Origin: Clostridiales bacterium
Lineage (GTDB): Bacteria; Bacillota; Clostridia; Oscillospirales; CAG-272
Direction: 5' to 3'
Length of the DNA: 64,000 nucleotides
Assembly (NCBI GenBank): GCA_016288155.1
Contig: JAEEYP010000048.1
Coordinates: forward strand, 1,735-65,734
The notes under the pieces were generated by a model. That model was not told where the DNA came from, made no database searches, and saw only the letters and a list, made by a program, of their open reading frames with translations. Position numbers and translations under genes: made by a program. Of the stretch, positions 1 through 34,482 are shown piece by piece (the first letter of the stretch is position 1; each line of letters starts with the position of its first letter).

Positions 1-146
1 GGCTCGATGCGGGCGTTGTGCCAGCCGTCCTGATCGTTGTACTCCATGATGAACATGTGGTCGGTGAAATACTTGCCGAAGCCGAGCGTGGAAGGTTCCG
101 GTTTTTCCTTTTTCACCGTGGTGGGATGAAAATCGATTTTCAGCAT
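1..146 (-). CDS. ilvE: Branched-chain amino acid aminotransferase, N-terminal 49 codons (gene runs off the window)
   Basis: Reverse-complement translation from ATG at 146..144 gives MLKIDFHPTTVKKEKPEPSTLGFGKYFTDHMFIMEYNDQDGWHNARIEP. The GFGKYFTDHMF block is typical of class IV BCAT N-termini. It lies 11 nt downstream of the OFOR gamma gene on the same strand. Confidence 0.75.
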   Translation of the reverse strand, partial: MLKIDFHPTTVKKEKPEPSTLGFGKYFTDHMFIMEYNDQDGWHNARIE

Positions 147-157
147 GGCGTTTCTCC

Positions 158-694
158 TTATCCTTCGTATTGATAGCCGACGTCGATGGCGCGCCGGTTG
201 AGATCGAGCATTTCCTTGTGGCGGGCGGAGACGACCTTCGCGAGCGCTTCGTCGAGATTATCGTAGGAGATCGCGTCGCATTCGCGGATCAGCTTGCCGA
301 CGATGATCATGTTCGCCAGCGTCGTGATCCCCTCGTCCGCCGCCATCTGCGTGGCGGGGATGCGGAACGCGCGCACGTCGGCGCGGTTGACGCCGCGCTC
401 GATCAGCGTGGAGTCCGCGATGATGATGCCGCCCGGCACGACGGCGCTTTCATAGCGGTCGAGCGAGGGCAGGTTCATGGCGATGAGCACGTCCGGACGG
501 GTGACGATCGGGGAACCGACGGCGGAGTCGGAGACGATGACGGAGCAGGAAGCCGTGCCGCCGCGCATCTCCGGACCGTAGGACGGGAGCCACGAGACCT
601 GACTGCCCTCCATCATCGCCTTGTACGCGAGGAATTTCCCGGAGAACAGGATACCCTGTCCGCCGAAGCCTGTGATGAGGATCTGGGTCGTCAT
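158..694 (-). CDS. 2-oxoacid:ferredoxin oxidoreductase, gamma subunit
   Basis: 178-aa ORF starting MTTQILITGFGGQGILFSGKFLAYKAMMEG, the GGQG motif typical of OFOR gamma subunits. Its start is 1 nt from the beta subunit stop. Confidence 0.85.
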   Translation of the reverse strand: MTTQILITGFGGQGILFSGKFLAYKAMMEGSQVSWLPSYGPEMRGGTASCSVIVSDSAVGSPIVTRPDVLIAMNLPSLDRYESAVVPGGIIIADSTLIERGVNRADVRAFRIPATQMAADEGITTLANMIIVGKLIRECDAISYDNLDEALAKVVSARHKEMLDLNRRAIDVGYQYEG

Positions 695-695
695 C

Positions 696-1442
696 TCACT
701 TCACCTCCGCATATTTGTCTTTGTATACGCCGAGCGGATAGTAGGGGATCATCTTCTCCTCGACCCATGCGAGCGCCTTGTCCGGCGTCATTCCCCAGTT
801 CGTCGGGCAGGTGGAGATCACCTCGATCAGCGAAAAGCCCTTGCCCTCGACCTGATTTTTGAACGCGCGGAGGATCGCCCGCTTCGCGTTCTTCACGTTC
901 TTGACGCTGTTGACGGCGACGCGCTCCAGATACGACGCGCCGTCGAGCTGGGAGAGCATCTCGCACATCTTGATCGGGTAGCCCTGCGTCGCGACGTCGC
1001 GGCCGTAGGGGGAGGTCTGCGTGACCTGACCGGGCAGGGAGGTCGGCGCCATCTGACCGCCGGTCATGCCGTAGATCGCGTTGTTCACGAAGATGATCGT
1101 GATGTTCTCGCCGCGGGCGGCGGAATGGACGGTCTCGCAGGTGCCGATGGAGGCGAGGTCGCCGTCGCCCTGATACGTGAAGACGATCTTCGACGGATCG
1201 GAGCGCTTGACGCCCGTCGCGACGGCGGGGGCGCGTCCGTGCGCCGCCTGCACCATATCGACGGTGAAATAGTTGTACGCCATGACGGAACAGCCGACGG
1301 AGGCGACGCCGATCGTGCGTCCCTCGATGCCGAGCTCGTCGATCGCTTCGGCGACGAGACGGTGGATGATGCCGTGCGTGCAGCCGGGGCAGTAATGCAG
1401 CGGCGCGTCGGTCAGCGATTTCGGTTTTTCAAAGACGATCAT
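696..1442 (-). CDS. 2-oxoacid:ferredoxin oxidoreductase, beta (TPP-binding) subunit
   Basis: Trimmed the track ORF 696..1655 to the ATG at 1442 (MIVFEKPKSLTDAPLHYCPGCTHGIIHRLV...). It carries the CPGC motif and a GDGD TPP-binding region. ATGA overlap with the alpha subunit stop. The upstream extension is Arg/Pro-rich junk. Confidence 0.85.
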   Translation of the reverse strand: MIVFEKPKSLTDAPLHYCPGCTHGIIHRLVAEAIDELGIEGRTIGVASVGCSVMAYNYFTVDMVQAAHGRAPAVATGVKRSDPSKIVFTYQGDGDLASIGTCETVHSAARGENITIIFVNNAIYGMTGGQMAPTSLPGQVTQTSPYGRDVATQGYPIKMCEMLSQLDGASYLERVAVNSVKNVKNAKRAILRAFKNQVEGKGFSLIEVISTCPTNWGMTPDKALAWVEEKMIPYYPLGVYKDKYAEVK

Positions 1443-2503
1443 GCTTTCAGTCCTCCTTGAGCGGTTTCGATGGCGGCAAGGACTTCGTCCGGCGAGGGGA
1501 TCATGCCGCCGGCGCGGTTGACGAGCGTGACGGGGCGGGCGCAGTCCATGGCGAGGCGCACGTCCTCGATCATCTGCCCCATGGAGAGCTCCACGGAAAT
1601 GAAGCGCTTCGCGTGGGACGCGGCGCCGGCGATCACCGCTTTCGGGAACGGCCACAGCGTGATCGGGCGGATCAGTCCGACGCGGATGCCCTTCTCGCGG
1701 GCGGCGAGGATCGCGTTCTTGGAGACGCGCGCCGCGATGCCGAACGCCACGACGACGATGTCCGCGTCCTCCGTCATGAAGGATTCGGCGGCCGCCTCGT
1801 TCTCCTCGACGGTGCGGTAGCGCTCGTAGCGGGCGAAGTTCGTCCTCTCCAGATCCTCGGGGACGAGGTAGAGGGAATTGACGATATTGTGCGGGCGCTT
1901 GCCGTCCGTGCCGGTCAGCGCCCAGGGCTTTTCATAGACGACCGGTTCCGGCGCCTCGAGGACGACCGGCTCCATCATCTGCCCCATCGTGCCGTCGGCG
2001 AGGATCATCGACGTCATGCGGTATTTGTCCGCCAGATCGAAGCCCTTCATCGTCAGCGCCGCCATTTCCTGAACGGAGGCGGGCGCGAGCACGATCATAT
2101 GGAAATCGCCGTGCCCGGAGCCGCGCGTCGCCTGGAAATAGTCGGACTGCGACGGCTGGATGCCGCCGAGACCGGGACCGCCGCGCTCCACGTTGACGAC
2201 GAGCGCCGGAAGATCACAGCCGGCGAGATAGGAAAGCCCCTCGCATTTGAGGGAGATCCCGGGACTGGAGGAGGAGGTCATGGCGCGCTTGCCGGTGGAC
2301 GCGACGCCGATGACCATGTTGATCGCGGCGAGCTCGCTCTCCGCCTGCAGGAACGTGCCGCCGATCTTCGGCATGCGCTTCGCCATATAGGCGGCGACTT
2401 CCGTCTGCGGGGTGATCGGATATCCGAAATAGTGGCGGCAGCCGGCGAGGATGGCGGCCTCCGCGATGGCTTCGTTGCCTTTCATCAGAACCTTTTCAGC
2501 CAT
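1439..2503 (-). CDS. 2-oxoacid:ferredoxin oxidoreductase, alpha subunit (VorB/KorA-like)
   Basis: Trimmed the track ORF to the ATG at 2503 (MAEKVLMKGNEAIAEAAILAGCRHYFGYPITPQTE...), the canonical OFOR alpha N-terminus. A GGAG-type RBS (aaaggagcg) lies upstream on the coding strand. Confidence 0.85.
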   Translation of the reverse strand: MAEKVLMKGNEAIAEAAILAGCRHYFGYPITPQTEVAAYMAKRMPKIGGTFLQAESELAAINMVIGVASTGKRAMTSSSSPGISLKCEGLSYLAGCDLPALVVNVERGGPGLGGIQPSQSDYFQATRGSGHGDFHMIVLAPASVQEMAALTMKGFDLADKYRMTSMILADGTMGQMMEPVVLEAPEPVVYEKPWALTGTDGKRPHNIVNSLYLVPEDLERTNFARYERYRTVEENEAAAESFMTEDADIVVVAFGIAARVSKNAILAAREKGIRVGLIRPITLWPFPKAVIAGAASHAKRFISVELSMGQMIEDVRLAMDCARPVTLVNRAGGMIPSPDEVLAAIETAQGGLKA

Positions 2504-2520
2504 TTTTTTCGCTCCTTTCC

Positions 2521-2727
2521 TTATTTTTCGACCGTGATGATGCAGTCTGGACACATCGTGGCGCAGAACGCGCAGCCGATGCACCCTGACTGGTCGGCGA
2601 CCTCTACGGGATGGTGTCCCTTTTTGTTGATCTTATCCGCGGCGAGGACGAGGACCTTCTTCGGGCAGGCGGAGACGCACAGCCCGCAGCCCTTGCAGAG
2701 ATCGGTCTGGAATGTCAGTTTCGGCAT
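2521..2727 (-). CDS. 4Fe-4S ferredoxin-type delta subunit of OFOR
   Basis: 68 aa with two CxxCxxCxxxCP motifs (CKGCGLCVSACP and CIGCAFCATMCP). Confidence 0.85.
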   Translation of the reverse strand: MPKLTFQTDLCKGCGLCVSACPKKVLVLAADKINKKGHHPVEVADQSGCIGCAFCATMCPDCIITVEK

Positions 2728-2748
2728 GGTTTCATCTCCTTTTTGGGG

Positions 2749-3435
2749 TTATTTCCAGGTGTATTTATGCTCCAGAACGATCGGGAACAGCGGCCCGACC
2801 GATCCGGCGAGCGCGGGGGCGAGGTCTTCTCTGACCGCGGTCATGCGGACGGGAAGACCGCTCTCGCGCGAGAGCGCTTCGGCGAAGGGAAGGGAAGCGA
2901 GGACGTCCTCCGCGGTCGTCTCCTCCCCGAGGTTCGTGTTGTTGACGATCCCGGTGGCGCGGATGCCGCCCGCCGCTTCGATCTCCCGCAACACGGCGAG
3001 CGCGTCGGGAACGGTCCGTGTCAGAGGACGGAAACGGTTGACGACGAAGAGCATCTCGTACCGTCCCTCGGCGAGGATGGCGGGCGCGTAGCGGCCGAGC
3101 GCGAGCGCGCCGCGGTCGTCACCGCCGATGTCGAGCACGGCGTAGGCGTCCGTGTCGTCCGTCACGGCGTACATTTCCGTCGGCAGCGCGGGAAAGTCGA
3201 CGTTCGTGTTCGCGTAGGCGGAGGAGATGAGGCGCACCCCCGCCGCGTCGAGGCGCGCGGCGCTGTCCTTGGTGCGGAAATACGGGTTCACGATGTCGAG
3301 GTCGGCGATGTTCACCCGGTATCCGAGCGACCGGATCCACAGCGCGTAATTCACGGCGATGTTCGTTTTGCCGCTGCCGTAATGCCCGCAGAAGAGCGTC
3401 ACGCGGCGGGGCGGCGCAAGCGCGGCGTCGTTCAC
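2749..3435 (-). CDS. P-loop NTPase (SIMIBI/MinD-Mrp-CooC-like), function unknown
   Basis: 228 aa. Walker A is GHYGSGKTN, followed by DLDIVNPYFR and a DIGGDDRG Walker-B-like block. It sits between the acyl-CoA synthetase and the OFOR genes with 14- and 21-nt gaps. Confidence 0.7.
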   Translation of the reverse strand: MNDAALAPPRRVTLFCGHYGSGKTNIAVNYALWIRSLGYRVNIADLDIVNPYFRTKDSAARLDAAGVRLISSAYANTNVDFPALPTEMYAVTDDTDAYAVLDIGGDDRGALALGRYAPAILAEGRYEMLFVVNRFRPLTRTVPDALAVLREIEAAGGIRATGIVNNTNLGEETTAEDVLASLPFAEALSRESGLPVRMTAVREDLAPALAGSVGPLFPIVLEHKYTWK

Positions 3436-3449
3436 GGCGGCGCCTCCCG

Positions 3450-5747
3450 TCAGAGCTTGGAGCGGATGATCTTGCCGCTCGTGGTCTTCGGAAGCTCGTC
3501 GCGGAACTCGACGATGCGCGGATATTTATAGGGCGCCGTGTGCGCCTTGACGTAATTCTGGATCTCCTTCTTCAGCTCGTCCGTGCCGACGGTGCCGCGC
3601 GTGAGCACGACGCTCGCCTTGACGATCTGTCCCCGGATCTCGTCCGGGACGGCGGAAACGCCGCATTCGAGGACGTACGGCAGTTCCATGATGACGGATT
3701 CGATTTCGAACGGTCCGATGCGGTAGCCGGACGACTTGATGACGTCGTCGATGCGGCTGACGTACCAGTAGAAGCCGTCCTCGTCGCGCCACGCGAGGTC
3801 GCAGGTGTGATAGTATCCGTCGTGCCAAACCTCGGCGGTCTTTTCCGGATCGTTCCAGTATCCGGTGAAGAGTCCGCAGGGCGCGCCCTCCGCGACGCGG
3901 ATGCAGATCTCGCCGGTCTCGCCGTCGCCGACCTCGTTCCCGTCGCCGTCGAGCAGACGGACGTCGTAGATCGGGCAGACACGTCCCATCGAGCCGATCT
4001 TGTGCGGCGCGCCGGAGAGGTTGCCGAGGATGCACGTCGTTTCCGTTTGACCGAAGCCTTCCATGATCGGGAGCCCCGTCGCCGCCATGAACTGCCGGTA
4101 TACCTCCGGGTTGAGCGCCTCGCCGGCCGTGGAGGCGTGGCGGAGCGTGGAGTAAGAATAGCGGGAGAGATCTTCTTTTATGAGCATGCGGTACATCGTC
4201 GGCGGCGCGCAGAAGGTCGTGATGCCGTATTCCTCAAAGAGCGGCAAAATCTGCGCGGCGTCGAAACGGTCGAAGTCGTACACGAAGGTCGCGCCCTCGC
4301 ACAGCCACTGACCGTACAGCTTGCCCCACATCGCCTTCGCCCAGCCGGTGTCGGAGATCGTGAAGTGCAGTCCGTCCGTCTGGACGCAGTGCCAGTATTT
4401 CGCGGTATGGAAATGCCCGAGCGGGTACTTGTGGCTGTGCAGCGCCATCTTCGGGTATCCGGTCGTGCCGGAGGTGAAGAAGGCGAGGAGCGGATCGTCC
4501 CCGCCGGGGGCGTCCGGCGTGCGGAGATAGTGGCTCGAATACATCGTGTACTCCTCGTCGAAGGAGCGCCAGCCGTCGCGCTTGCCGTTGACGAGGATGC
4601 GGATCGGCGATATGCCGGAGGCTTCCTCCGCGAGCTCGACCTGATGCGCGCAGTCGCCGTCGGCGGTGCAGATCACCGCCTTGACCTCCGCGAGGCGGAA
4701 GCGGTACTCAAGGTCGTGCGCGAGGAGCTGGTTCGTGCCGGGGATGGCGATGGCGCCGAGCTTGTTGAGCCCGAGCATCGCCGGCCAGAACTGCCAGTGC
4801 CGCTTGAGGATCATCATGACGCGGTCGCCGCGCCCGATGCCGATGGATTTGAAGTAGTTCGCGCAGCGCGCGGACTCGTGCGCCATGTCGTAGAAGGTGA
4901 AGCGGCGGCACTCCGTCTTGTCGCCGGAGAGCCAGACCATCGCGAGCTTGTCCGGCTTCTCGGCGGAGAGCGCGTCCACGAGGTCGAAGGCGAAATTGAA
5001 GTGCTCGATATCGTGGAAACGGATCGAGAGCGGCGTGCCGTTCTCGTCTTCCTCGGTATCGATGAAGCGGCGGTACACGCGCTCGGTGGTATCCGCCGGA
5101 GCGGGGGCGACGGCGGGAGACGGCGTTGCGGCGATGGCGAATTCGGGGATCTCCGCCCCGGAGGGATTGAGTACGATGGCGTAGAAATGGCAGTCCTGCC
5201 CGTCGAGGGCGATCATGCCGTGGGGCGTCGAGGAATCGTAATAGATGGAGTCCCCTTCGTGCAGGATCTCCTTGTGTTCGCCGACCTGCACCTTCAGCGT
5301 ACCGCTGATGACGATGTCGCATTCCTGTCCTTCGTGCGTCGTCATCTCGATGTCGCGGTGCAGCGCCTCTTCCATGAAGCGCAGCCGCACGCACAGCGGT
5401 TCCGCGATGCGGTTCTTGAACGCGGCGGCGAGGTTATGGTACACCATGCCGTGCGCTTCCTTGATCTCCTGACCGCCGCCGCGGCGGGTGACCGTGTAGG
5501 AGGCGAGCGTCGGGGATTTTCCTTCGATGATATCCGTGACGTCCACGTTGAAGGCGAGCGCGCAGCGGTAGATGAAGGCGAAGGGAAGATCGGACAGCCC
5601 GTTCTCGCAGGCGGTGTACTCCTCCTCGGAGACGTCCGTCTTCTGCGCCATCTCCGCGCAGGTATATCCCTCGATCTCGCGCAGCTCGCGGATGCGCCCC
5701 GCCATTTCGGCGATCTTCACGTCCAGACCGGTGATCGGTTTTGCCAT
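3450..5747 (-). CDS. Three-domain fusion: XRE-family HTH + cupin + ACSM/MACS-type medium-chain acyl-CoA synthetase (AMP-forming)
   Basis: 765 aa.
- N-terminus IRELREIEGYTCAEMAQKTDVSEEEYTACENG is HTH_3-like.
- The block HEGQECDIVISGTLKVQVGEHKEILHEGDSIYYDSSTPHG is cupin-like.
- The C-terminal ~540 aa carry the adenylate-forming motifs FTSGTTGYPKM, GFGQTET, SGYRIGPFEIES and PKTTSGKIIR.
- RBS ggagg lies 5 nt upstream of the ATG. Confidence 0.85.
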   Translation of the reverse strand: MAKPITGLDVKIAEMAGRIRELREIEGYTCAEMAQKTDVSEEEYTACENGLSDLPFAFIYRCALAFNVDVTDIIEGKSPTLASYTVTRRGGGQEIKEAHGMVYHNLAAAFKNRIAEPLCVRLRFMEEALHRDIEMTTHEGQECDIVISGTLKVQVGEHKEILHEGDSIYYDSSTPHGMIALDGQDCHFYAIVLNPSGAEIPEFAIAATPSPAVAPAPADTTERVYRRFIDTEEDENGTPLSIRFHDIEHFNFAFDLVDALSAEKPDKLAMVWLSGDKTECRRFTFYDMAHESARCANYFKSIGIGRGDRVMMILKRHWQFWPAMLGLNKLGAIAIPGTNQLLAHDLEYRFRLAEVKAVICTADGDCAHQVELAEEASGISPIRILVNGKRDGWRSFDEEYTMYSSHYLRTPDAPGGDDPLLAFFTSGTTGYPKMALHSHKYPLGHFHTAKYWHCVQTDGLHFTISDTGWAKAMWGKLYGQWLCEGATFVYDFDRFDAAQILPLFEEYGITTFCAPPTMYRMLIKEDLSRYSYSTLRHASTAGEALNPEVYRQFMAATGLPIMEGFGQTETTCILGNLSGAPHKIGSMGRVCPIYDVRLLDGDGNEVGDGETGEICIRVAEGAPCGLFTGYWNDPEKTAEVWHDGYYHTCDLAWRDEDGFYWYVSRIDDVIKSSGYRIGPFEIESVIMELPYVLECGVSAVPDEIRGQIVKASVVLTRGTVGTDELKKEIQNYVKAHTAPYKYPRIVEFRDELPKTTSGKIIRSKL

Positions 5748-5777
5748 GACATCCTCCAGTATTCGGGAAGGGAAATG

Positions 5778-6050
5778 AAAAACGCCCGTCCCAAAGATGG
5801 TTACGATCCTTGAGACGAGCGATAAACGTCACCCGCGGTACCACTCAAGTTGCGCCGATCCGGCGCCGCTCATCAGGCTCGATACAAGCCCTGTGCCTTC
5901 ACGCAGCATTCACGGGGAAGTTCTACTTGCTCACGCTTTCTTCTTCCCGGCTCAGAAGCTACAAACGGGAAAACGCTTTCATCGGCTCGCACCGCCCGCC
6001 GACTCTCTGCGGAAAGGATGTTTTCCGTCCTCTTCGTCGTCGCTTTTATT
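5778..6050 (-). promoter_or_regulatory. T-box leader (tRNA-sensing transcription attenuator), leader 1
   Basis: Read on the minus strand:
- K-turn GC-GAC-GA-C-GAAG paired with CUUC-U-GA-GC
- AGAGAG bulge
- distal loop GGGCGGUGCGA
- T-box AACUUGAGUGGUACCGCGGGU (plus coordinates 5831..5853)
- terminator hairpin CGUCUCAAGGAUCG..CAUCUUUGGGACG followed by UUUUU (5778..5817). Confidence 0.9.
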
Positions 6051-6057
6051 AACTGGG

Positions 6058-6086
6058 ATTATACCACATTCTCTCCCGCCCGTCAA
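6058..6086 (-). promoter_or_regulatory. Sigma-A type promoter for T-box leader 1
   Basis: On the minus strand: TTGACG (6086..6081), a 17-nt spacer, then TATAAT (6063..6058). Confidence 0.7.
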
Positions 6087-6112
6087 TAGGCTTGCAAAAA
6101 AAAACGCATATT

Positions 6113-6159
6113 CCCGCAAAAAAAACCGGGAAGAGAGCGGGAGACCGTTCTCTTCCCGG
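6113..6159 (-). terminator. Intrinsic terminator of the serine-hydrolase gene
   Basis: Minus-strand hairpin CCGGGAAGAGAACGGUCUCCCGCUCUCUUCCGG followed by a U8 run. Confidence 0.8.
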
Positions 6160-6169
6160 ACCGTGCCGG

Positions 6170-7660
6170 TCACTCTCTGTTCGCGTCCGCCATGCCGCGG
6201 TATTCGTCGAGGAAGTCCTCGGCGGTCTTTTCCATGACGAGCGTGACGTTCCGCCCGTCCTCGCCGAAGGAGAAGACGGCGTACATATTGCCGAAGTACC
6301 GATCGATGATCTGTACCTTGATCCCGAATTTCCGCTCTTCTTTCCATGCGGCGCTGACGGCGCAGCGGTACATAAACCCGTTCGTCGTGCGCACGCCGCC
6401 CGCCTCGTCGGAGTAGCCGAGCTGCGGGAAGCGGCAGAGCACGTTGTCTCCGATGGTGAACGGCAGCGTCTTCTCGCCCTGCGCGTTCTCCCAATAGAAC
6501 TCGCCGCTCTGTCCGTCCGGCGAGAAACGCAGGGCGAAGCGGCGGATGCCCATGCTGTTATCGCCGCAGCGGTAGTACCGGCCGTCGATGACGGAGCGGA
6601 ACGGGCTGTCCGCGCGGCCGGGGATCGAGAAGAGCTTCAGCTTGTCCGTCTCTTCGAGCAGCGCGCGGTGCGCCGCTTCGTTCTCCGGGAGCGGCTCGCC
6701 GCCCATGCGGTCCACGAGGAACTCGTTCATGCCGGCGACGAAGAGATCGATGTTGCTTTCCTGTCCCTGGTTGTCGCCGGTGCAGATGCAGATGAGATCC
6801 TTTTCCGGGATGCAGTAGGTCGACTGCCCGCCCATGCCGGAGAACCAGAAGCCGTTGTCCAGCATCCAGATCTGATAGCCGTAACCGACGGAACGGCAGG
6901 TGATGAAGCCGTTCGAGCAGTTGTCGACCTGCGGGGAGGTCGCGTCGCGCACGTACTGCTCCGGGATCAGCTGCTCGCCCTTCCAGCGTCCGCCGTTCAT
7001 GAGCAGCCGGGCGAAGGAGGCGATGTCGCGCGTCGTGCAGACCATGGCGGAATCGCCCCAGGACTCGCCGTTCGGCGTTTTGAGGATCTCGGCGTTTCGG
7101 AAGGTGCCGATCCGGTCGAAGAGCTTTTTCTTTAAATAATCGAGCAGCCGCATCCCGGTCAGCTTCTCGACGAGGACGCCGAGTGTCTGCGAGCCGGCGG
7201 AATCGTACTGGAAGATGCGCCCGCCCGGCATGCCGCGCTGACCGTTGCCGTTGAGATAGTAATGCACGCGGTCCGGATCGCCGCTCGTGAACCAGCGGCC
7301 CAGCGGCTGGACGGTCGTCTCCATCGTCAGCATGTTGCGGATCGTCTGTTTCTTGAGCGCTTCGGGGAGCTCCGTGTCGATCCGCTCCGGGAAGTACTTG
7401 ACGATGGGATCGTTTATGGAGATCTTTCCCTCCGCCTCGAGCAGACCGATGGCGATGGCGACGAAGCTCTTCGTCTGGGAATACATCCGGTGCACGTCGT
7501 CCGTGCCGAACGGCTTCCAGCGGAATTCACCGAAGATCTCCTCTCCTTTCATGAGAAGAAGATTGTGCATGACGACGCCGTTGCGCTCGAGGAACCGCAC
7601 GAAACCGAGTACGTCCTGCGAGCGGATGCCGGCTTTCTCCGGGGTGATTTTCTCAAACAT
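6170..7660 (-). CDS. Serine hydrolase, beta-lactamase/transpeptidase-like fold (class C-like, cytoplasmic)
   Basis: 496 aa. It has an SxxK motif (YSQTKSF) in the typical N-terminal position and no signal peptide. Confidence 0.7.
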   Translation of the reverse strand: MFEKITPEKAGIRSQDVLGFVRFLERNGVVMHNLLLMKGEEIFGEFRWKPFGTDDVHRMYSQTKSFVAIAIGLLEAEGKISINDPIVKYFPERIDTELPEALKKQTIRNMLTMETTVQPLGRWFTSGDPDRVHYYLNGNGQRGMPGGRIFQYDSAGSQTLGVLVEKLTGMRLLDYLKKKLFDRIGTFRNAEILKTPNGESWGDSAMVCTTRDIASFARLLMNGGRWKGEQLIPEQYVRDATSPQVDNCSNGFITCRSVGYGYQIWMLDNGFWFSGMGGQSTYCIPEKDLICICTGDNQGQESNIDLFVAGMNEFLVDRMGGEPLPENEAAHRALLEETDKLKLFSIPGRADSPFRSVIDGRYYRCGDNSMGIRRFALRFSPDGQSGEFYWENAQGEKTLPFTIGDNVLCRFPQLGYSDEAGGVRTTNGFMYRCAVSAAWKEERKFGIKVQIIDRYFGNMYAVFSFGEDGRNVTLVMEKTAEDFLDEYRGMADANRE

Positions 7661-12593: not shown

Positions 12594-12613
12594 GAATCAA
12601 CAACCGAATAACA

Positions 12614-12881
12614 GGCGTTGACGAAGACGGCGGAAAAGCGGTACTCCAGAGAGTCGGCGGGCGGTGCGAGCCGACGTATTCCTTTTCAGAAGCCTATCCC
12701 TTCCGAGCCGGAAGGCTGAACCCCCGCGAGGGCAAGTAGGTCTTCCCGTGATTGCTGCGTAAAGGCATAGGGCTTATTGGAGCCTGAGAGGCATCGGCGT
12801 CCGCCGGTGCAATTTGAGTGGTACCGCGGGTTTTGTTTTCAGACCCGTCTCAAAGCGATTTGAGACGGGTTTTTATTTTTT
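12614..12881 (+). promoter_or_regulatory. T-box leader (tRNA-sensing transcription attenuator), leader 2
   Basis: - K-turn GGC-GUU-GA-C-GAAG paired with CUUC-C-GA-GCC
- AGAGAG bulge (12648..12653)
- distal loop GGGCGGUGCGA
- T-box AAUUUGAGUGGUACCGCGGGU (12811..12831)
- terminator ACCCGUCUCAAAGCGAUUUGAGACGGGU followed by a U-run (12843..12881). Confidence 0.9.
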
Positions 12882-12899
12882 GAATCGGAGGATCCTGTC

Positions 12900-15182
12900 A
12901 TGCAGAACAGCGAGCAGAACGTCGGCGTCCCGATGACGCAGCTTGAGGAGATGGCGCACCGCATCCGCGACATGCGCGAGATCGCGGGACTGACGGCGGC
13001 GCAGATGGCGCAGAAAACGGAGATCACGGAGGAGGAATACCTGCGTTACGAGGAAGGGAAGGTGGATTTCCCCTTCACGTTCCTGCACAAATGCGCGCTC
13101 GCTTTCGGCATTGAGATTACGGAGATCCTCGAGGGGCACGGCGCGCGCCTTGCCTCTTATACCGTGACCCGGAAAGGGAAGGGCGCCCGCACCGCGCACG
13201 AGGACGGCATCGAGATCGCCGACCTCGCGCCGATGTTCCGCGGCAAGCTCGCTGAGCCGTATTGGGTACGCTATACGTATTCCGACGCGCTCCAGTCCGC
13301 GCCGATCCACTGCACGAAGCATGCCGGACAGGAGTTCGACCTCGTTCTGAGCGGGCGGCTGCGCGTGCAGGTCGGCACGCACACCGAGGAGCTCGCCGAG
13401 GGAGACAGCATCTTCTACAACAGCTCGACGCCGCACGGCATGATCGCCGTCGGCGGCGAGGACTGCGTTTTCCTCGCGTTCGTCATGACGGGCGAACCCT
13501 CCGGCGAGGACGTGCTCCATCCGGAATACATCTCCGCCCCGCAGACGGAGCGGCTGACCGTCGAGAAATTCGCGCACACGAAGACGGACGCGAACGGCCT
13601 GTTGACGGAGGTGCATTTCGAGAATGCCGACCGCTTCAACTTCGCCTTCGACATCGTCGACACGCTCGGCCGCGAGAAGCCGGACCAGCTCGCGATGATC
13701 CACCTCGACGGGGAGAAGAACGAGCGCCGCTTCACCTTCGCGGACATGAAGCGCGCTTCCTCCCAGTGCGCGAATTACTTCAAGGCGCTCGGCATCCGGC
13801 GCGGCGACCGCGTCATGCTCGTGCTCAAGCGGCACTGGCAGTTCTGGCCGGCGATCCTCGGTCTGCACAAGCTCGGCGCCGTCGCCATCCCGGCGACGAA
13901 CCAGCTTCACGAGCACGATTTCGTCTACCGCTTCGACGCGGCGGGCGTCTCCGCCGTGCTCTGCACCGCGGACGGACAGACCGCCGCCGACGTGGACGCC
14001 GCCGCCGCGAAGTGCCCGTCGGTCAAGCTGAAGATCCTCGTCGGCGGACAGCGCGAGGGCTGGCGCGATTTCAACGGAGAATACAGCCTCTTCACCGGCA
14101 AGTTCGAGCGCACGGAGGACGCTCCCTGCGGGGACGACACGATGCTCATGTTCTTCACCTCCGGCACGACCGGCTATCCGAAGATGGCGATGCATTCCTA
14201 TAAGTATCCGCTCGGGCATTACCTGACGGCGCGCTACTGGCACAACATCCATCCGGGCGGGCTCCATCTGACGATCTCCGACACCGGCTGGGGCAAGGCG
14301 CTCTGGGGCAAGCTCTACGGCCAGTGGATGTGCGAGGCCGCCGTCTTCACCTACGATTTCGACCGCTTCCACGCAAACGATATCCTGCCGCTCTTCGCGC
14401 AGTATCAGATCACGACTTTCTGCGCGCCGCCGACGATGTACCGCATGCTCATAAAGGAAGACATCTCCCGCTACGATCTTTCCTCGATCCGCTATGCGAC
14501 GACGGCGGGCGAGGCGCTCAACCCGGAGGTCTTCCGGCAGTTCGAGAAGCAGACGGGGCTGAGGATCATGGAGGGCTTCGGACAGACGGAGACGACGCTG
14601 ACGATCGGCAACATGGTCGGCGCGCCCGCCAAGATCGGCTCTATGGGACGGCCGGTACCGCTGTACGACATCGACCTCGTCGACCCGGACGGGAATCCCG
14701 TGCCGGACGGCGAGACGGGCGAGATCGTCGTCCGCACGGACCGGGAGATCCCCTGCGGGCTCTTCAAGGGCTACTACGAGGCGCCGGACAAGACGGAGGA
14801 GGTCTGGCACGACGGCATGTACCACACGCGCGACCTCGCATGGCGGGATGAGGACGGCTACTTCTGGTACGTCGGCCGTGCGGACGACGTCATCAAGTCG
14901 TCCGGCTACCGCATCGGACCGTTCGAGATCGAATCCGTCATCATGGAGCTGCCGTACGTGCTCGAATGCGGCGTGTCCGCCGCGCCGGACGAGATCCGCG
15001 GGCAGGTCGTAAAGGCGAGCATCGTGCTCACGAAGGGGACCGTCGGCACGGAGGAACTGAAGAAGGAGATCCAGGACTACGTGAAGAAGCAGACCGCGCC
15101 GTACAAGTACCCGCGCATCGTCGTTTTCCGGGACGAGCTGCCGAAGACGATCAGCGGCAAGATCATGCGCAATAAACTCTGA
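12900..15182 (+). CDS. Paralogous three-domain fusion: XRE-family HTH + cupin + ACSM/MACS-type acyl-CoA synthetase
   Basis: 760 aa, collinear with the 3450..5747 product. Both carry the FTSGTTGYPKMA motif, and the stretch SGYRIGPFEIESVIMELPYVLECGVSA is identical in both. RBS ggagg lies upstream. Confidence 0.85.
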   Translation: MQNSEQNVGVPMTQLEEMAHRIRDMREIAGLTAAQMAQKTEITEEEYLRYEEGKVDFPFTFLHKCALAFGIEITEILEGHGARLASYTVTRKGKGARTAHEDGIEIADLAPMFRGKLAEPYWVRYTYSDALQSAPIHCTKHAGQEFDLVLSGRLRVQVGTHTEELAEGDSIFYNSSTPHGMIAVGGEDCVFLAFVMTGEPSGEDVLHPEYISAPQTERLTVEKFAHTKTDANGLLTEVHFENADRFNFAFDIVDTLGREKPDQLAMIHLDGEKNERRFTFADMKRASSQCANYFKALGIRRGDRVMLVLKRHWQFWPAILGLHKLGAVAIPATNQLHEHDFVYRFDAAGVSAVLCTADGQTAADVDAAAAKCPSVKLKILVGGQREGWRDFNGEYSLFTGKFERTEDAPCGDDTMLMFFTSGTTGYPKMAMHSYKYPLGHYLTARYWHNIHPGGLHLTISDTGWGKALWGKLYGQWMCEAAVFTYDFDRFHANDILPLFAQYQITTFCAPPTMYRMLIKEDISRYDLSSIRYATTAGEALNPEVFRQFEKQTGLRIMEGFGQTETTLTIGNMVGAPAKIGSMGRPVPLYDIDLVDPDGNPVPDGETGEIVVRTDREIPCGLFKGYYEAPDKTEEVWHDGMYHTRDLAWRDEDGYFWYVGRADDVIKSSGYRIGPFEIESVIMELPYVLECGVSAAPDEIRGQVVKASIVLTKGTVGTEELKKEIQDYVKKQTAPYKYPRIVVFRDELPKTISGKIMRNKL

Positions 15183-15247: not shown

Positions 15248-15276
15248 TTGACAAGCGGCGGGATATGTGCTATAAT
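15248..15276 (+). promoter_or_regulatory. Promoter of the infC-rpmI-rplT operon
   Basis: TTGACA (15248..15253), a 17-nt spacer, then TGcTATAAT. Confidence 0.75.
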
Positions 15277-15283
15277 ACACCGG

Positions 15284-15395
15284 AATCAAGAAGAACCGAC
15301 CCGTTCTCACCGTACCGCTATTGCGCGTACGGTTCATACAAACCGTTTTTTTCGTGCGGCGAAGATGGAGTCGGTTCGGCTCCGTCTATTTTTTT
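15284..15395 (+). promoter_or_regulatory. L20-type leader with intrinsic attenuator upstream of infC
   Basis: ~140-nt untranslated leader ending in the hairpin GAUGGAG-ucgguucgg-CUCCGUC followed by UAUUUUUUU (15364..15395). Position and architecture match the L20 (rplT) autoregulatory leader known in Firmicutes. Sequence-level homology was not verified. Confidence 0.55.
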
Positions 15396-15420
15396 CTCAC
15401 TGTATGGGAGGTGCTGCACC

Positions 15421-15942
15421 ATAGCAAAGGAACTGTTGATCAATGATCAGATCAAGGTCAAGGAGACCCGCATGCTCGACGAGAACGGGAATCAGCTCGG
15501 CATCATGACGCTCGCTCAGGCGCGCCAGTACGCGTATGACCACGGCGTCGATCTTGTTCTGATCGCTCCGCAGGCGACGCCGCCTGTATGCCGCGCCATG
15601 GATTACGGAAGGTATCGGTATGAGTGCGACAAGAAGGACAAGGAAGCGAAGAAAAAGCAAACCGTGACGGAGGTCAAGGAGGTCCAGCTCTCCTGCCGGA
15701 TCGACACGCATGACTTCGAGACGAAGGTGAATCATGCGCTCCGATTCCTCGGCGCGGGGAACAAGGTGCGCGTCTGCCTGAAATTCCGCGGGCGCGAGAT
15801 GGCGCACCAAAGTCTCGGCCACGAGATCCTCGAACGCTTTGCACAGGCCTGCAGCGAATGCAGCACCGTTGAGAAAAAGCCGGTGCTGGAGGGACGGCAG
15901 GTCACGATGTTCCTTGCTCCCGTCAAGCAGAATGCGAAGTAA
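15421..15942 (+). CDS. infC: Translation initiation factor IF-3
   Basis: The conserved IF-3 sequence begins IAKELLINDQIKVKETRMLDENGNQLGIM. There is no in-frame ATG/GTG/TTG near the RBS (gggaggtg at 15406..15413). The codon at 15421 is ATA, consistent with the atypical start codons characteristic of infC. Confidence 0.85.
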   Translation: MAKELLINDQIKVKETRMLDENGNQLGIMTLAQARQYAYDHGVDLVLIAPQATPPVCRAMDYGRYRYECDKKDKEAKKKQTVTEVKEVQLSCRIDTHDFETKVNHALRFLGAGNKVRVCLKFRGREMAHQSLGHEILERFAQACSECSTVEKKPVLEGRQVTMFLAPVKQNAK

Positions 15943-32079: not shown

Positions 32080-34482
32080 ATGAAGTACGATTTCAAATCC
32101 GTCGAGGGAAAATGGCAGGACCGCTGGGAGGCGGAGGGAACCTTTTGCGCGTCGGAGGATCATACGAAGCCGAAATTCTACGGGCTCGTCGAGTTCCCGT
32201 ATCCGAGCGGAGCCGGGATGCACGTCGGCCATATCAAGGCGTATTCCGGGCTCGAGGTGATCTGCCGCAAGCGCCGCATGCAGGGCTTCAACGTCCTGTT
32301 CCCGATCGGCTTCGACGCCTACGGGCTCCCGACGGAAAACTACGCGATCAAGACCGGCATCCATCCGCGCAAGGTCACGGATAAGAATATCGAGAAGTTC
32401 ACCTCGCAGCTGAAGCGCGTCGGCTTCTCCTTCGACTGGTCCCGCGTCGTCGACACGACGGAGGAAGGCTACTACAAGTGGACGCAGTGGATCTTCCGGC
32501 GCATGTTCGACGAGGGGCTCGTTTTCCGCGCCAAGACGCTCGTCAACTACTGCCCGAGCTGCAAGGTCGTCCTCTCCAACGAGGATTCGCAGGGCGGCAA
32601 GTGCGACGTCTGCCACAGCGACATCGTACAGAAGTCGAAGGACGTGTGGTACCTGCGGATCACGGAGTACGCCGACAAGCTGCTCGAAGGGCTCGATCAC
32701 GTCGACTATCTGCCGAACATCCGTCTCCAGCAGGAGAACTGGATCGGCCGCTCGGAGGGCGCTTTCGTCAACTTCGCCATATCCGGCGAGGAGGAAGCGC
32801 TCCGCATCTACACGACGCGCCCGGACACGATGTTCGGCGTGACCTTCATGGTCATCGCACCGGAGCATCCGATCCTCGACCGCTGCCGCGCCCGCATCCG
32901 CAACACGGACGCGCTCGACGCGTACCGCGCCGAATGCGCGAAGAAGACGGAGTTCGAGCGGACGCAGCTCGTCAAGGAGAAGACCGGCGTCCGCATCGAG
33001 GGGCTGACGGCGATCAACCCCGCGAACGGACGGGAGATCCCGATCTATATCTCCGACTACGTCATGATGGGCTACGGCACCGGCGCGATCATGGCGGTGC
33101 CCGCGCACGACGAACGCGACTACGAGTTCGCCAAGAAGTTCGGCATCGAGATCATCGAGGTCATCCGCGGCGGCGATATCGAGAAAGAAGCGTACACCGG
33201 CGACGGCGAGATGGTCAACTCCGGATTCCTCAACGGCATCACCACGAAGAAGGAAGCCATCGCCCGCATGCTCGAATACCTGAAGGAAAAGGGCGTCGGC
33301 GAGCGCGGCGTCCAGTACAAGATGAAGGACTGGGCGTTCAACCGCCAGCGGTACTGGGGCGAGCCGATCCCGATCATCCACTGCCCGACGTGCGGCATGG
33401 TCGGCGTTCCGTATGAAGAACTGCCGCTGAAGCTGCCGCCGGTCGAGAATTTCGCGCCCGGCGAGGGCGGCGAAAGTCCGCTCGCCAAGATCGATTCCTT
33501 CGTGAACTGCACCCGCCCGAAGTGCGGCGGTCCCGCGAAGCGCGAGACGGACACGATGCCGCAGTGGGCCGGTTCCTCGTGGTACTTCCTCCGCTATACG
33601 GATCCGCACAACAGCGAAGCGTTCGCCTCGAAGGAGGCGCTCAAATACTGGCTGCCCGTCGACTGGTACAACGGCGGCATGGAGCACGTCACGCGCCACC
33701 TGATCTACTCCCGCTTCTGGCACCGCTTCCTCTACGATATCGGCGAGGTGCCGGTCGCCGAGCCGTATGCCAAGCGCACGGCACAGGGACTGATCCTCGG
33801 ACCGGACGGCGAAAAGATGAGCAAATCGAAGGGGAACGTCGTCGACCCGAACGACGTCGTCGACGTGTACGGCGCGGACGTACTCCGCGTGTACGTCTTG
33901 TTCATGGGCGATTACGCCTCTGCCGCTCCGTGGAGCGAGAACGGCGTCAAGGGCTGCAAGCGCTTCCTTGAGCGCGTCGCCGGGCTGAGCGATATCGCCC
34001 GCGGCACAGGCGAAACGCCGGCGATCACCGCCTCCCTCCATAAGACGATCCGCAAGGTCTCCGAGGACATCGAGGAGATGAAGTTCAACACCGCCATCGC
34101 GGCGATGATGACGCTTCTCAACGAGATCTCCGACGCTGGCGCGCTGACGAAGGACGAGCTGGGGATCTTCGTGCGGCTGCTCTGCCCGTTCGCGCCGCAT
34201 CTGGCGGAGGAAATGTGGGAGGCGCTCGGTCATACGTCGCTCTGCGCGAACGCGCCGTGGCCGGAGCACGACGAGGAGAAAACGACGGACGCGACGGTCG
34301 AGATCGCCGTCCAGATCAACGGCAAGCTGCGGGGAACGGTGCTCGTCCCGAAGGACGCGCCGAAGGACGAGGTGATCGCCGCGGCGAAGGCGGACGGACG
34401 CGTCGCCGGCGCGCTCGAAGGGAAGACGATCATCAAGGAGATCTTCGTCCCCGGACGGATCGTCAATCTGGTCGTTCGCTGA
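32080..34482 (+). CDS. leuS: Leucine--tRNA ligase
   Basis: 800 aa with YPSGAGMHVGH (HIGH) and KMSKSKGN (KMSKS). Confidence 0.95.
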   Translation: MKYDFKSVEGKWQDRWEAEGTFCASEDHTKPKFYGLVEFPYPSGAGMHVGHIKAYSGLEVICRKRRMQGFNVLFPIGFDAYGLPTENYAIKTGIHPRKVTDKNIEKFTSQLKRVGFSFDWSRVVDTTEEGYYKWTQWIFRRMFDEGLVFRAKTLVNYCPSCKVVLSNEDSQGGKCDVCHSDIVQKSKDVWYLRITEYADKLLEGLDHVDYLPNIRLQQENWIGRSEGAFVNFAISGEEEALRIYTTRPDTMFGVTFMVIAPEHPILDRCRARIRNTDALDAYRAECAKKTEFERTQLVKEKTGVRIEGLTAINPANGREIPIYISDYVMMGYGTGAIMAVPAHDERDYEFAKKFGIEIIEVIRGGDIEKEAYTGDGEMVNSGFLNGITTKKEAIARMLEYLKEKGVGERGVQYKMKDWAFNRQRYWGEPIPIIHCPTCGMVGVPYEELPLKLPPVENFAPGEGGESPLAKIDSFVNCTRPKCGGPAKRETDTMPQWAGSSWYFLRYTDPHNSEAFASKEALKYWLPVDWYNGGMEHVTRHLIYSRFWHRFLYDIGEVPVAEPYAKRTAQGLILGPDGEKMSKSKGNVVDPNDVVDVYGADVLRVYVLFMGDYASAAPWSENGVKGCKRFLERVAGLSDIARGTGETPAITASLHKTIRKVSEDIEEMKFNTAIAAMMTLLNEISDAGALTKDELGIFVRLLCPFAPHLAEEMWEALGHTSLCANAPWPEHDEEKTTDATVEIAVQINGKLRGTVLVPKDAPKDEVIAAAKADGRVAGALEGKTIIKEIFVPGRIVNLVVR

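Follow-up and report, generated by a model that had tools for sequence, protein, structure and literature searches.

A T-box leader ahead of an acyl-CoA synthetase and a ferredoxin-dependent oxidoreductase: a putative valine salvage operon in Clostridia

Why should a riboswitch that senses the charging of a transfer RNA (tRNA) stand ahead of genes for an acyl-coenzyme A (CoA) synthetase, a 2-oxoacid:ferredoxin oxidoreductase (OFOR) and an aminotransferase? The question is raised by a locus at the left end of a 64,000-nucleotide (nt) stretch of DNA (the window) from a Clostridiales bacterium of the Oscillospirales lineage CAG-272 (assembly GCA_016288155.1, contig JAEEYP010000048.1, positions 1,735 to 65,734 of the forward strand). 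An earlier reading of the letters alone – the sequence-only reading – had proposed that the minus-strand operon behind this T-box leader encodes every step from carboxylic acid through acyl-CoA and 2-oxoacid to amino acid, and places the whole route under tRNA control. The specifier codon of the leader, and a three-class pattern of T-boxes among related loci, support such a route and narrow it: judged from sequence, the locus is probably a tRNA-Val-gated operon for the salvage of isobutyrate to valine.

Ahead of the leader is the only promoter-like site in positions 1..6400 (6086..6058, minus strand), and the T-box lies 9 bases downstream of it. The match to Rfam family RF00230 covers the full model (positions 1-219 of 219) and takes in Stem I – with its K-turn, specifier loop, AGAGA bulge and distal loop – the Stem II region, Stem III and the antiterminator; the conserved T-box sequence reads AACUUGAGUGGUACCGCGGG. 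The 5' arm of the intrinsic terminator is also the 3' arm of the antiterminator (the common segment is CGCUCGUCUCAAG), and because one arm serves both, the two structures are mutually exclusive. In RNAfold the terminator alone gives -24.0 kcal/mol, and the antiterminator folds only when the 3' arm is omitted. Downstream of the terminator are a ribosome-binding site (RBS), GGAGG, and the ATG of the first gene at 5747. The sequence-only reading had placed a promoter and a complete T-box at 6086..5778 on the minus strand: both are borne out, the former by a match at 11 of 12 consensus positions and the latter by the full-length hit, which the covariance model accepts (93.6 bits; gathering score 93).

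Which tRNA the leader would sense depends on the register in which the specifier loop is read. The 3' strand of that loop is CGUUUGUAG, followed by the helix strand CUUC. Three bases and one unpaired base before the helix constitute the canonical specifier position, and the codon is therefore GUA, valine; this is also the register – nucleotides 2-4 from the loop end – to which TBDB gives priority (PMC7778990). Across 38 orthologous leaders the same position holds GUA (34) or GUC (4), both valine codons. A shift of the register by -1 yields Cys, Gly or Arg codons in these orthologs, a shift of -2 yields Leu, Arg, Met or Pro, and the GUA register alone holds one amino acid per T-box class. The bulge is UGGU in all 109 fully parsed related leaders, from which it follows that the discriminator base of the tRNA is A. 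A discriminator A73 fits tRNA-Val, tRNA-Ile and tRNA-Leu; tRNA-Cys carries U73 and tRNA-Ser G73. Register conservation together with the UGGU bulge led us to reject Cys (UGU), Leu (UUG) and Phe (UUU) as readings of the window specifier, and likewise a Ser specifier, which had been considered for other T-box classes. On its sequence, then, the T-box of the window is assigned to tRNA-Val. No tRNA genes were found in the 64 kb.

If this assignment is right, charged tRNA-Val (anticodon UAC) would leave the terminator hairpin free to form, and transcription would halt before the first gene. Uncharged tRNA-Val would pair through its anticodon with GUA and through its ACCA end with UGGU, the antiterminator would be held, and transcription would read through. 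The synthetase domain of the first gene product would then convert isobutyrate to isobutyryl-CoA, with ATP going to AMP and pyrophosphate; a four-subunit VOR-type OFOR, working in reverse, would combine isobutyryl-CoA, CO2 and reduced ferredoxin to give 2-oxoisovalerate; and IlvE would transaminate 2-oxoisovalerate to valine. We infer the substrates and the direction of flux, the latter because a starvation-induced T-box and an AMP-forming ligase both point to synthesis. The chemistry has a physiological precedent: that rumen anaerobes carboxylate isobutyrate to valine, 2-methylbutyrate to isoleucine and isovalerate to leucine is established (PMC7356843 and the papers of Allison and Robinson cited in it).

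The genes themselves are arranged exactly as the sequence-only reading had described, that is, seven on one strand separated in order by 14, 21, 17, -4, 1 and 11 nt, and profile searches agree with the protein assigned to each. Its failure to find an internal terminator is also upheld: within the operon the minus strand offers just one terminator-like site, a weak hairpin of 6 pairs (2254..2237) whose T tail is poor, and over the whole region five such sites occur against 4.6 expected from shuffles. Every gene has its own GGAG-type RBS, and the seven would appear to be carried on a single transcript. All four OFOR subunit types are present with their diagnostic Pfam domains, and the alpha subunit passes the cut-off of the NCBIfam VorB model NF005507 (524.5 bits; cut-off 399). 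The last gene is cut by the window edge, and its 48-residue fragment scores 37 bits against the PRK13357 cut-off of 307; the full-length ilvE at the equivalent position in a relative (locus L003) scores 470 bits. The exact P-loop protein of the window was found on only two short contigs, neither of which extends the operon past the window edge.

Table 1. Features of the operon and of the second, Ile-type unit in the window, with specifier codons of the three T-box classes in related loci.
Feature	Position	Strand	Details
Sigma-70-type promoter	6058..6086	-	TTGACG-17 nt-TG-n-TATAAT (extended TG); 11/12 consensus positions matched
T-box leader	5808..6049	-	Rfam RF00230, 93.6 bits, E 3.4e-19; nhmmer 199.5 bits
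Specifier codon GUA (Val)	5960..5962	-	next come G5959 and lower-helix strand CUUC
UGGU of T-box bulge	5840..5843	-	pairing partner of the A73-C-C-A end of uncharged tRNA
Intrinsic terminator and U-tract	5775..5821	-	16-pair stem, 7-nt loop; hairpin 5821..5783, then TTTTT
HTH-cupin-synthetase fusion, 765 aa	5747..3450	-	HTH_19/HTH_31, Cupin_2, AMP-binding, AMP-binding_C
P-loop NTPase, 228 aa	3435..2749	-	GTG start; Walker A GHYGSGKT; no Pfam match
OFOR delta, 68 aa	2727..2521	-	ferredoxin-like, 2x[4Fe-4S], Fer4
OFOR alpha	2503..1439	-	POR_N and PFOR_II; NCBIfam VorB
OFOR beta	1442..696	-	TPP_enzyme_C, TPP-binding
OFOR gamma	694..158	-	POR
ilvE start, first 48 codons, cut by window edge	146..1	-	PRK13357 (class II IlvE), E 1.4e-9
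Second T-box	12609..12855	+	specifier AUC (Ile) then C; bulge UGGU; Rfam 88.2 bits, E 7.8e-20; nhmmer 159.8 bits
Paralogous HTH-cupin-acyl-CoA synthetase fusion, 760 aa	12900..15182	+	
Relatives: fusion orthologous to first gene of operon			specifiers GUA (34), GUC (4): Val
Relatives: paralogous fusion			specifier AUC (46): Ile
Relatives: LeuA-like gene and third synthetase			specifiers CUC (21), CUG (3): Leu, 24/24

A scan of one genome per species placed the gene for the P-loop NTPase in at least 599 genomes, and the best 80 loci, on which the comparisons reported here are based, come from uncultured or little-known Clostridia (Oscillospiraceae, Acutalibacteraceae and Christensenellaceae) living in the guts of ruminants, humans and other animals. 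Wherever a locus extends far enough, the P-loop gene is followed immediately by OFOR delta-alpha-beta-gamma (80 of 80 loci), and ilvE, which passes the NCBIfam cut-offs, directly follows gamma in 27 and precedes the P-loop gene in others. Two layouts predominate. In layout A a fusion of helix-turn-helix (HTH), cupin and synthetase domains, often accompanied by a second paralog, is followed by the P-loop gene, the OFOR, ilvE, a LeuA-like gene and a third synthetase; in layout B the LeuA-like gene, third synthetase and ilvE precede the P-loop gene and the OFOR, and an HTH-cupin-synthetase gene lies at a distance beyond them.

A nhmmer profile built from eight T-boxes gave 115 T-box matches in these 80 loci, and with the specifier read at a fixed position all 108 T-boxes with an assignable codon specify Val, Ile or Leu. 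The specificities are not scattered over the synthetases. When fusions were classed by their greater likeness to one or other of the two window paralogs, the Ile-type fusions had 42 Ile and no Val T-boxes, and the Val-type or ambiguous fusions 38 Val and no Ile; the LeuA-like gene and third synthetase stand behind Leu T-boxes without exception. Six Val-type genes that lack a T-box of their own sit directly behind an Ile-type gene. Nearly every one of the 38 Val T-boxes is preceded by its own promoter, at the same position (by eye) as in the window. The T-box ahead of the OFOR unit is of the Val class in 38 loci, of the Ile class in 15 and of the Leu class in at least 3; in 17 loci none was detected. 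Because each T-box class gates its own synthetase beside the same OFOR and ilvE, the module is predicted to supply valine, isoleucine and leucine, and the three-T-box pattern would be hard to account for otherwise. Module and T-box thus recur in related Clostridia, each branched-chain amino acid with its own synthetase; phenylacetate and phenylalanine, which the sequence-only reading had listed as a further possibility, find no support in the 108 assignable specifiers. One additional T-box (locus L028, 9689-9936) stands directly before a P-loop gene with no ligase between; its specifier, left unassigned, is GCA, UGC or CUG by helix drawing.

A putative isoleucine arm is represented within the window by a second T-box and fusion (12609-15182, plus strand) that the sequence-only reading did not mention. 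The two window fusions are 50% identical over their N-terminal domains and 69% over their synthetase domains. This second unit is taken to be monocistronic because infC (15265-15942) comes next; its product is a predicted 2-methylbutyrate-CoA ligase, and 2-methylbutyrate would be fed into the same OFOR and IlvE to give isoleucine. A candidate leucine arm is seen in the relatives (L003 13507-17760; L004 13497-17753; L008 9293-13572; and 20 other loci). Its LeuA-like gene is divergent and falls under the isopropylmalate synthase cut-offs, and its second gene encodes an 840-residue fusion of a xylose-isomerase-like TIM barrel (AP_endonuc_2) to a PRK12583-like acyl-CoA ligase, a type unrelated to the Val and Ile paralogs. 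The unit probably serves leucine within this system, and in the source genome probably sits just past the left edge of the window. The leucyl-tRNA synthetase gene of the window (32080-34482, plus strand) showed no T-box upstream in either the Rfam gathering scan or a search with the family nhmmer profile.

What the synthetases might act on can be judged from their relatives. The fusion of the operon consists of an XRE-type HTH and cupin region (residues 1 to about 200), a linker, and an AMP-forming synthetase (residues 247-765; Pfam AMP-binding E 1e-64, AMP-binding_C E 4e-21), the nearest structure to which is 3ETC, Macs of Methanosarcina acetivorans (E 9.4e-182 over residues 247-763). Trp259 of Macs is retained as W452. 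Val-type and Ile-type fusions are separated by 12 positions, of which 10 lie in the N-terminal domain and two in the synthetase domain: Ala470/Gly and Met473/Leu (Val/Ile), in the segment DTGW-A-KAM-WGK, where Macs has Gly and Val. Position 470 comes right after the conserved GW, and in acetyl-CoA synthetase the residue after this GW is a determinant of the acyl pocket. Ala470 fits a smaller pocket suited to the C4 acid isobutyrate, and the Gly of the Ile-type a pocket for a C5 acid. From paralog class, which tracks the specifier codon, and from this pocket difference, the operon's fusion is a predicted isobutyrate-CoA ligase. Macs prefers 2-methylbutyrate (PMC10455477), and MbcS of Staphylococcus aureus acts selectively on 2-methylbutyrate and isobutyrate but poorly on isovalerate (PMC10026030), a selectivity that fits Macs/MbcS-like ligases serving valine and isoleucine and an unrelated ligase serving leucine.

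Several observations weigh against a salvage operon of this kind. The Rfam score of the Val T-box is barely over gathering, and that of the Ile T-box is below it (88.2 against 93). OFOR beta, gamma and delta fall below every NCBIfam equivalog or subfamily cut-off that they match. The synthetase, whose best NCBIfam match is MbcS, reaches 423.8 bits against an equivalog cut-off of 850; by this measure it is a relative of MbcS and not an MbcS equivalog. In the window the Ile unit has neither an OFOR nor a transaminase of its own, and salvage of isoleucine would therefore need basal expression of the Val-gated genes or an OFOR elsewhere; in layout A, too, a transcript started at the Ile unit would have to get past the terminator of the Val T-box. 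Finally, gating by tRNA is frequent and not universal, and is not essential to the module: three layout-B loci from Acutalibacteraceae and unclassified Clostridia (L014, L020 and L053) gave no T-box by Rfam at E<=1e-3, and must therefore be regulated in some other way.

Could the locus be something else? The seven genes need not serve one pathway, in which case the T-box would govern the synthetase fusion only and the downstream genes would have a promoter of their own and an unrelated role. Such an arrangement has some appeal, for the Ile-type fusion of the window does stand alone and gene order varies among the relatives, but we regard it as improbable: the gaps between the genes are too small to hold a promoter, no convincing terminator divides them, and the linkage of synthetase, P-loop gene, OFOR and ilvE outlasts rearrangement in relatives. 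That the genes act together on some product other than an amino acid is a little harder still to credit. Here the module would make branched acyl-CoAs that prime the synthesis of branched-chain membrane fatty acids, the part played by S. aureus MbcS in supplying FabH (PMC10026030), and MbcS is after all the best-matching family of the synthetase; yet primers need neither an OFOR nor IlvE, control by tRNA charging would not be expected, and in dozens of genomes the OFOR and ilvE genes run in line with that of the synthetase. We consider this distinctly improbable.

The same enzymes might also run the other way, with IlvE and the OFOR oxidizing valine to isobutyryl-CoA in a Stickland-type or peptide fermentation and the ligase reversed or otherwise used. 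The gene set alone leaves direction unfixed, and VOR-type OFORs are reversible and work oxidatively in peptide-fermenting archaea. A catabolic operon is nonetheless very improbable: its T-box would switch on the destruction of valine just when the cell is starved of it, the reaction of AMP-forming ligases is in practice irreversible in the cell, and three synthetase types each gated by the matching tRNA make sense for supply only. Least credible of all is a T-box specific for another tRNA (Cys UGU, Leu UUG or Phe UUU) combined with an OFOR that acts on another 2-oxoacid. The loop sequence UUUGUAG does contain overlapping UUU, UUG and UGU triplets, and the best NCBIfam match of OFOR delta is an oxoglutarate-type delta, albeit under the cut-off; against this stand the single amino acid kept by the GUA register across 38 orthologs, the priority of that register in TBDB (PMC7778990), a UGGU bulge unfit for tRNA-Cys, an alpha subunit scoring above the VorB cut-off, and an ilvE gene next in line. 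Salvage of isobutyrate to valine under tRNA-Val control thus appears the probable role of the operon.

The product of the second gene is an unnamed P-loop NTPase. It gave no Pfam or NCBIfam match above cut-off, and a sequence search of the PDB matched ArsA and MinD in the Walker A region only. Walker A (GHYGSGKT) and a DxxG-type Walker B (DIGGDD) are invariant in the family. A structural model (confidence score, pLDDT, 85) resembles SRP54/FtsY and ATPase-type HypB in Foldseek (TM 0.5-0.6, probability 1.0), a likeness at the level of fold only. An invariant His replaces the signature Lys of MinD/ParA/Mrp, and NN[ST]N replaces the NKxD of G3E and SRP GTPases; because both signatures are lacking and no family matches, the protein is placed, by sequence, in the SIMIBI class outside every named subfamily. 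A NifH-like electron-transfer ATPase with iron-sulphur ligands was considered and dropped: the protein has one Cys only, at a column that is mostly Ala or Leu in relatives, and no conserved cysteines able to hold a cluster occur in the family. More than 8000 close relatives, all unnamed, are present in the protein collection. A search of 1.84 billion cluster representatives gave 833 family members at E<=1e-30 and revealed no informative fusions: nearly all members stand alone at 215-235 residues, and the few long ones are uninformative or probably chimeric. Since the gene strictly adjoins the OFOR, the most economical guess, and the most likely role, is that of an assembly, accessory or maturation factor for the OFOR.

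The N-terminal domain of the fusion (residues 1-197; 5157-5747, minus strand) scores 47.7 bits with Cupin_2 (cut-off 27.2) and is borderline with HTH_19 (30.1 against 30.2). Profile searches match it to 1Y9Q, an HTH_3-cupin regulator (E 7e-8), and to HppE, the fosfomycin epoxidase, an HTH-cupin iron enzyme (E 1.6e-4); Foldseek gives E 1e-12 with a model of moderate quality (pLDDT 75). His138, Glu142 and His176 are invariant, and in the alignment they fall on the Fe(II) metal triad of HppE. No conserved operator for the HTH was found upstream of the 38 Val T-boxes, where only the promoter is conserved. The domain probably has a regulatory role and binds a ligand or a metal, and because 10 of the 12 class-specific positions fall in it, it may recognize something specific to the Val or Ile unit – amino acid, acid or DNA site. 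A bolder proposal, which we hold to be unlikely, is that nucleotide hydrolysis by the P-loop NTPase is coupled to the reductive carboxylation of acyl-CoA, a thermodynamically difficult reaction, and that the HTH-cupin domain makes the ligase an amino-acid- or acid-sensing 'trigger enzyme'. If true, the former would amount to an energy-assisted 2-oxoacid synthase, and the two together would let the module integrate three signals, from the charging of tRNA, the amount of substrate or product, and the energy state.

The 5' neighbours of the operon, between 6170 and 9110 on the minus strand, are genes for a beta-lactamase-fold protein (serine hydrolase) and an MgtE magnesium transporter. Past the hydrolase gene and directly 5' of the operon promoter, at about 6100-6160, a hairpin-like sequence with a T-run can be seen by eye.

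Branched-chain volatile fatty acids are fed to ruminants because rumen and gut anaerobes carboxylate them to valine, isoleucine and leucine. To our knowledge, and as far as we could find, the bacterial genes for this route and their regulation have not been laid out. The operon would supply gene names and a regulator for a route known only physiologically since the 1960s, and the window locus with its roughly 80 relatives makes a testable gene set. Three T-boxes that tag three synthetases with their probable substrates would also constitute an unusual, riboswitch-based annotation of enzyme specificity, and both a widespread P-loop NTPase family and the HTH-cupin-ligase fusion can now be studied in a functional context. 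Among gut Oscillospiraceae, Acutalibacteraceae and Christensenellaceae of humans and animals the module is common, which makes it relevant to cross-feeding between bacteria that ferment amino acids and those that degrade fibre.

Comparison with known systems shows where the parts are familiar. In Firmicutes, T-boxes control branched-chain amino acid genes such as ilv-leu of Bacillus subtilis (a Leu T-box) and the leaders of valS, ileS and leuS; riboswitch family and mechanism are the same here, with a specifier codon, a UGGN bulge and a terminator in competition with an antiterminator, as is the logic by which an uncharged tRNA raises the supply of its cognate amino acid. The controlled genes differ, being those for a ligase, a ferredoxin-dependent oxidoreductase and a transaminase rather than for the acetolactate pathway, a tRNA synthetase or a transporter, and the relatives of the operon use three T-box specificities in one neighbourhood. 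The OFOR has the four subunit types and the domains of the VOR enzymes of Thermococcales and Methanothermobacter and of bacterial VorB (NF005507); its gene order, by contrast, is delta-alpha-beta-gamma, always preceded by the gene for the unnamed P-loop NTPase, and its operon context points to the reductive, carboxylating direction. The synthetase belongs to the same subfamily as Macs (3ETC) and MbcS, both of which favour short branched acids. Unlike either, it carries an additional 200-residue N-terminal HTH-cupin domain, comes in two paralogous forms, Val-type and Ile-type, distinguished by a pocket residue, and is proposed to feed amino-acid rather than lipid synthesis. The N-terminal domain is like 1Y9Q and HppE in sequence and fold, with the metal-triad positions kept, and BirA-type fusions likewise join an HTH to an adenylate-forming enzyme; fusion to an ANL-family ligase is not described for either group, and the HTH-cupin-ligase fusion is undescribed so far.

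A parallel to the route as a whole is found in Methanococcus maripaludis, which makes aromatic amino acids from aryl acids by way of a ligase, indolepyruvate oxidoreductase and an aminotransferase. The three-step logic is the same, and the differences are those of enzyme family (IOR), substrates, organism (an archaeon) and regulation, there being no riboswitch control. Full-text searches of the literature gave no paper connecting T-boxes to OFORs, to short branched acids or to acyl-CoA synthetases; regulon databases lay outside their coverage, and an earlier mention is possible. Taken singly, riboswitch, enzyme families and physiology are all known. What appears to be new is their assembly into one module, together with the labelling of three ligases by three tRNAs, the P-loop partner and the HTH-cupin fusion.

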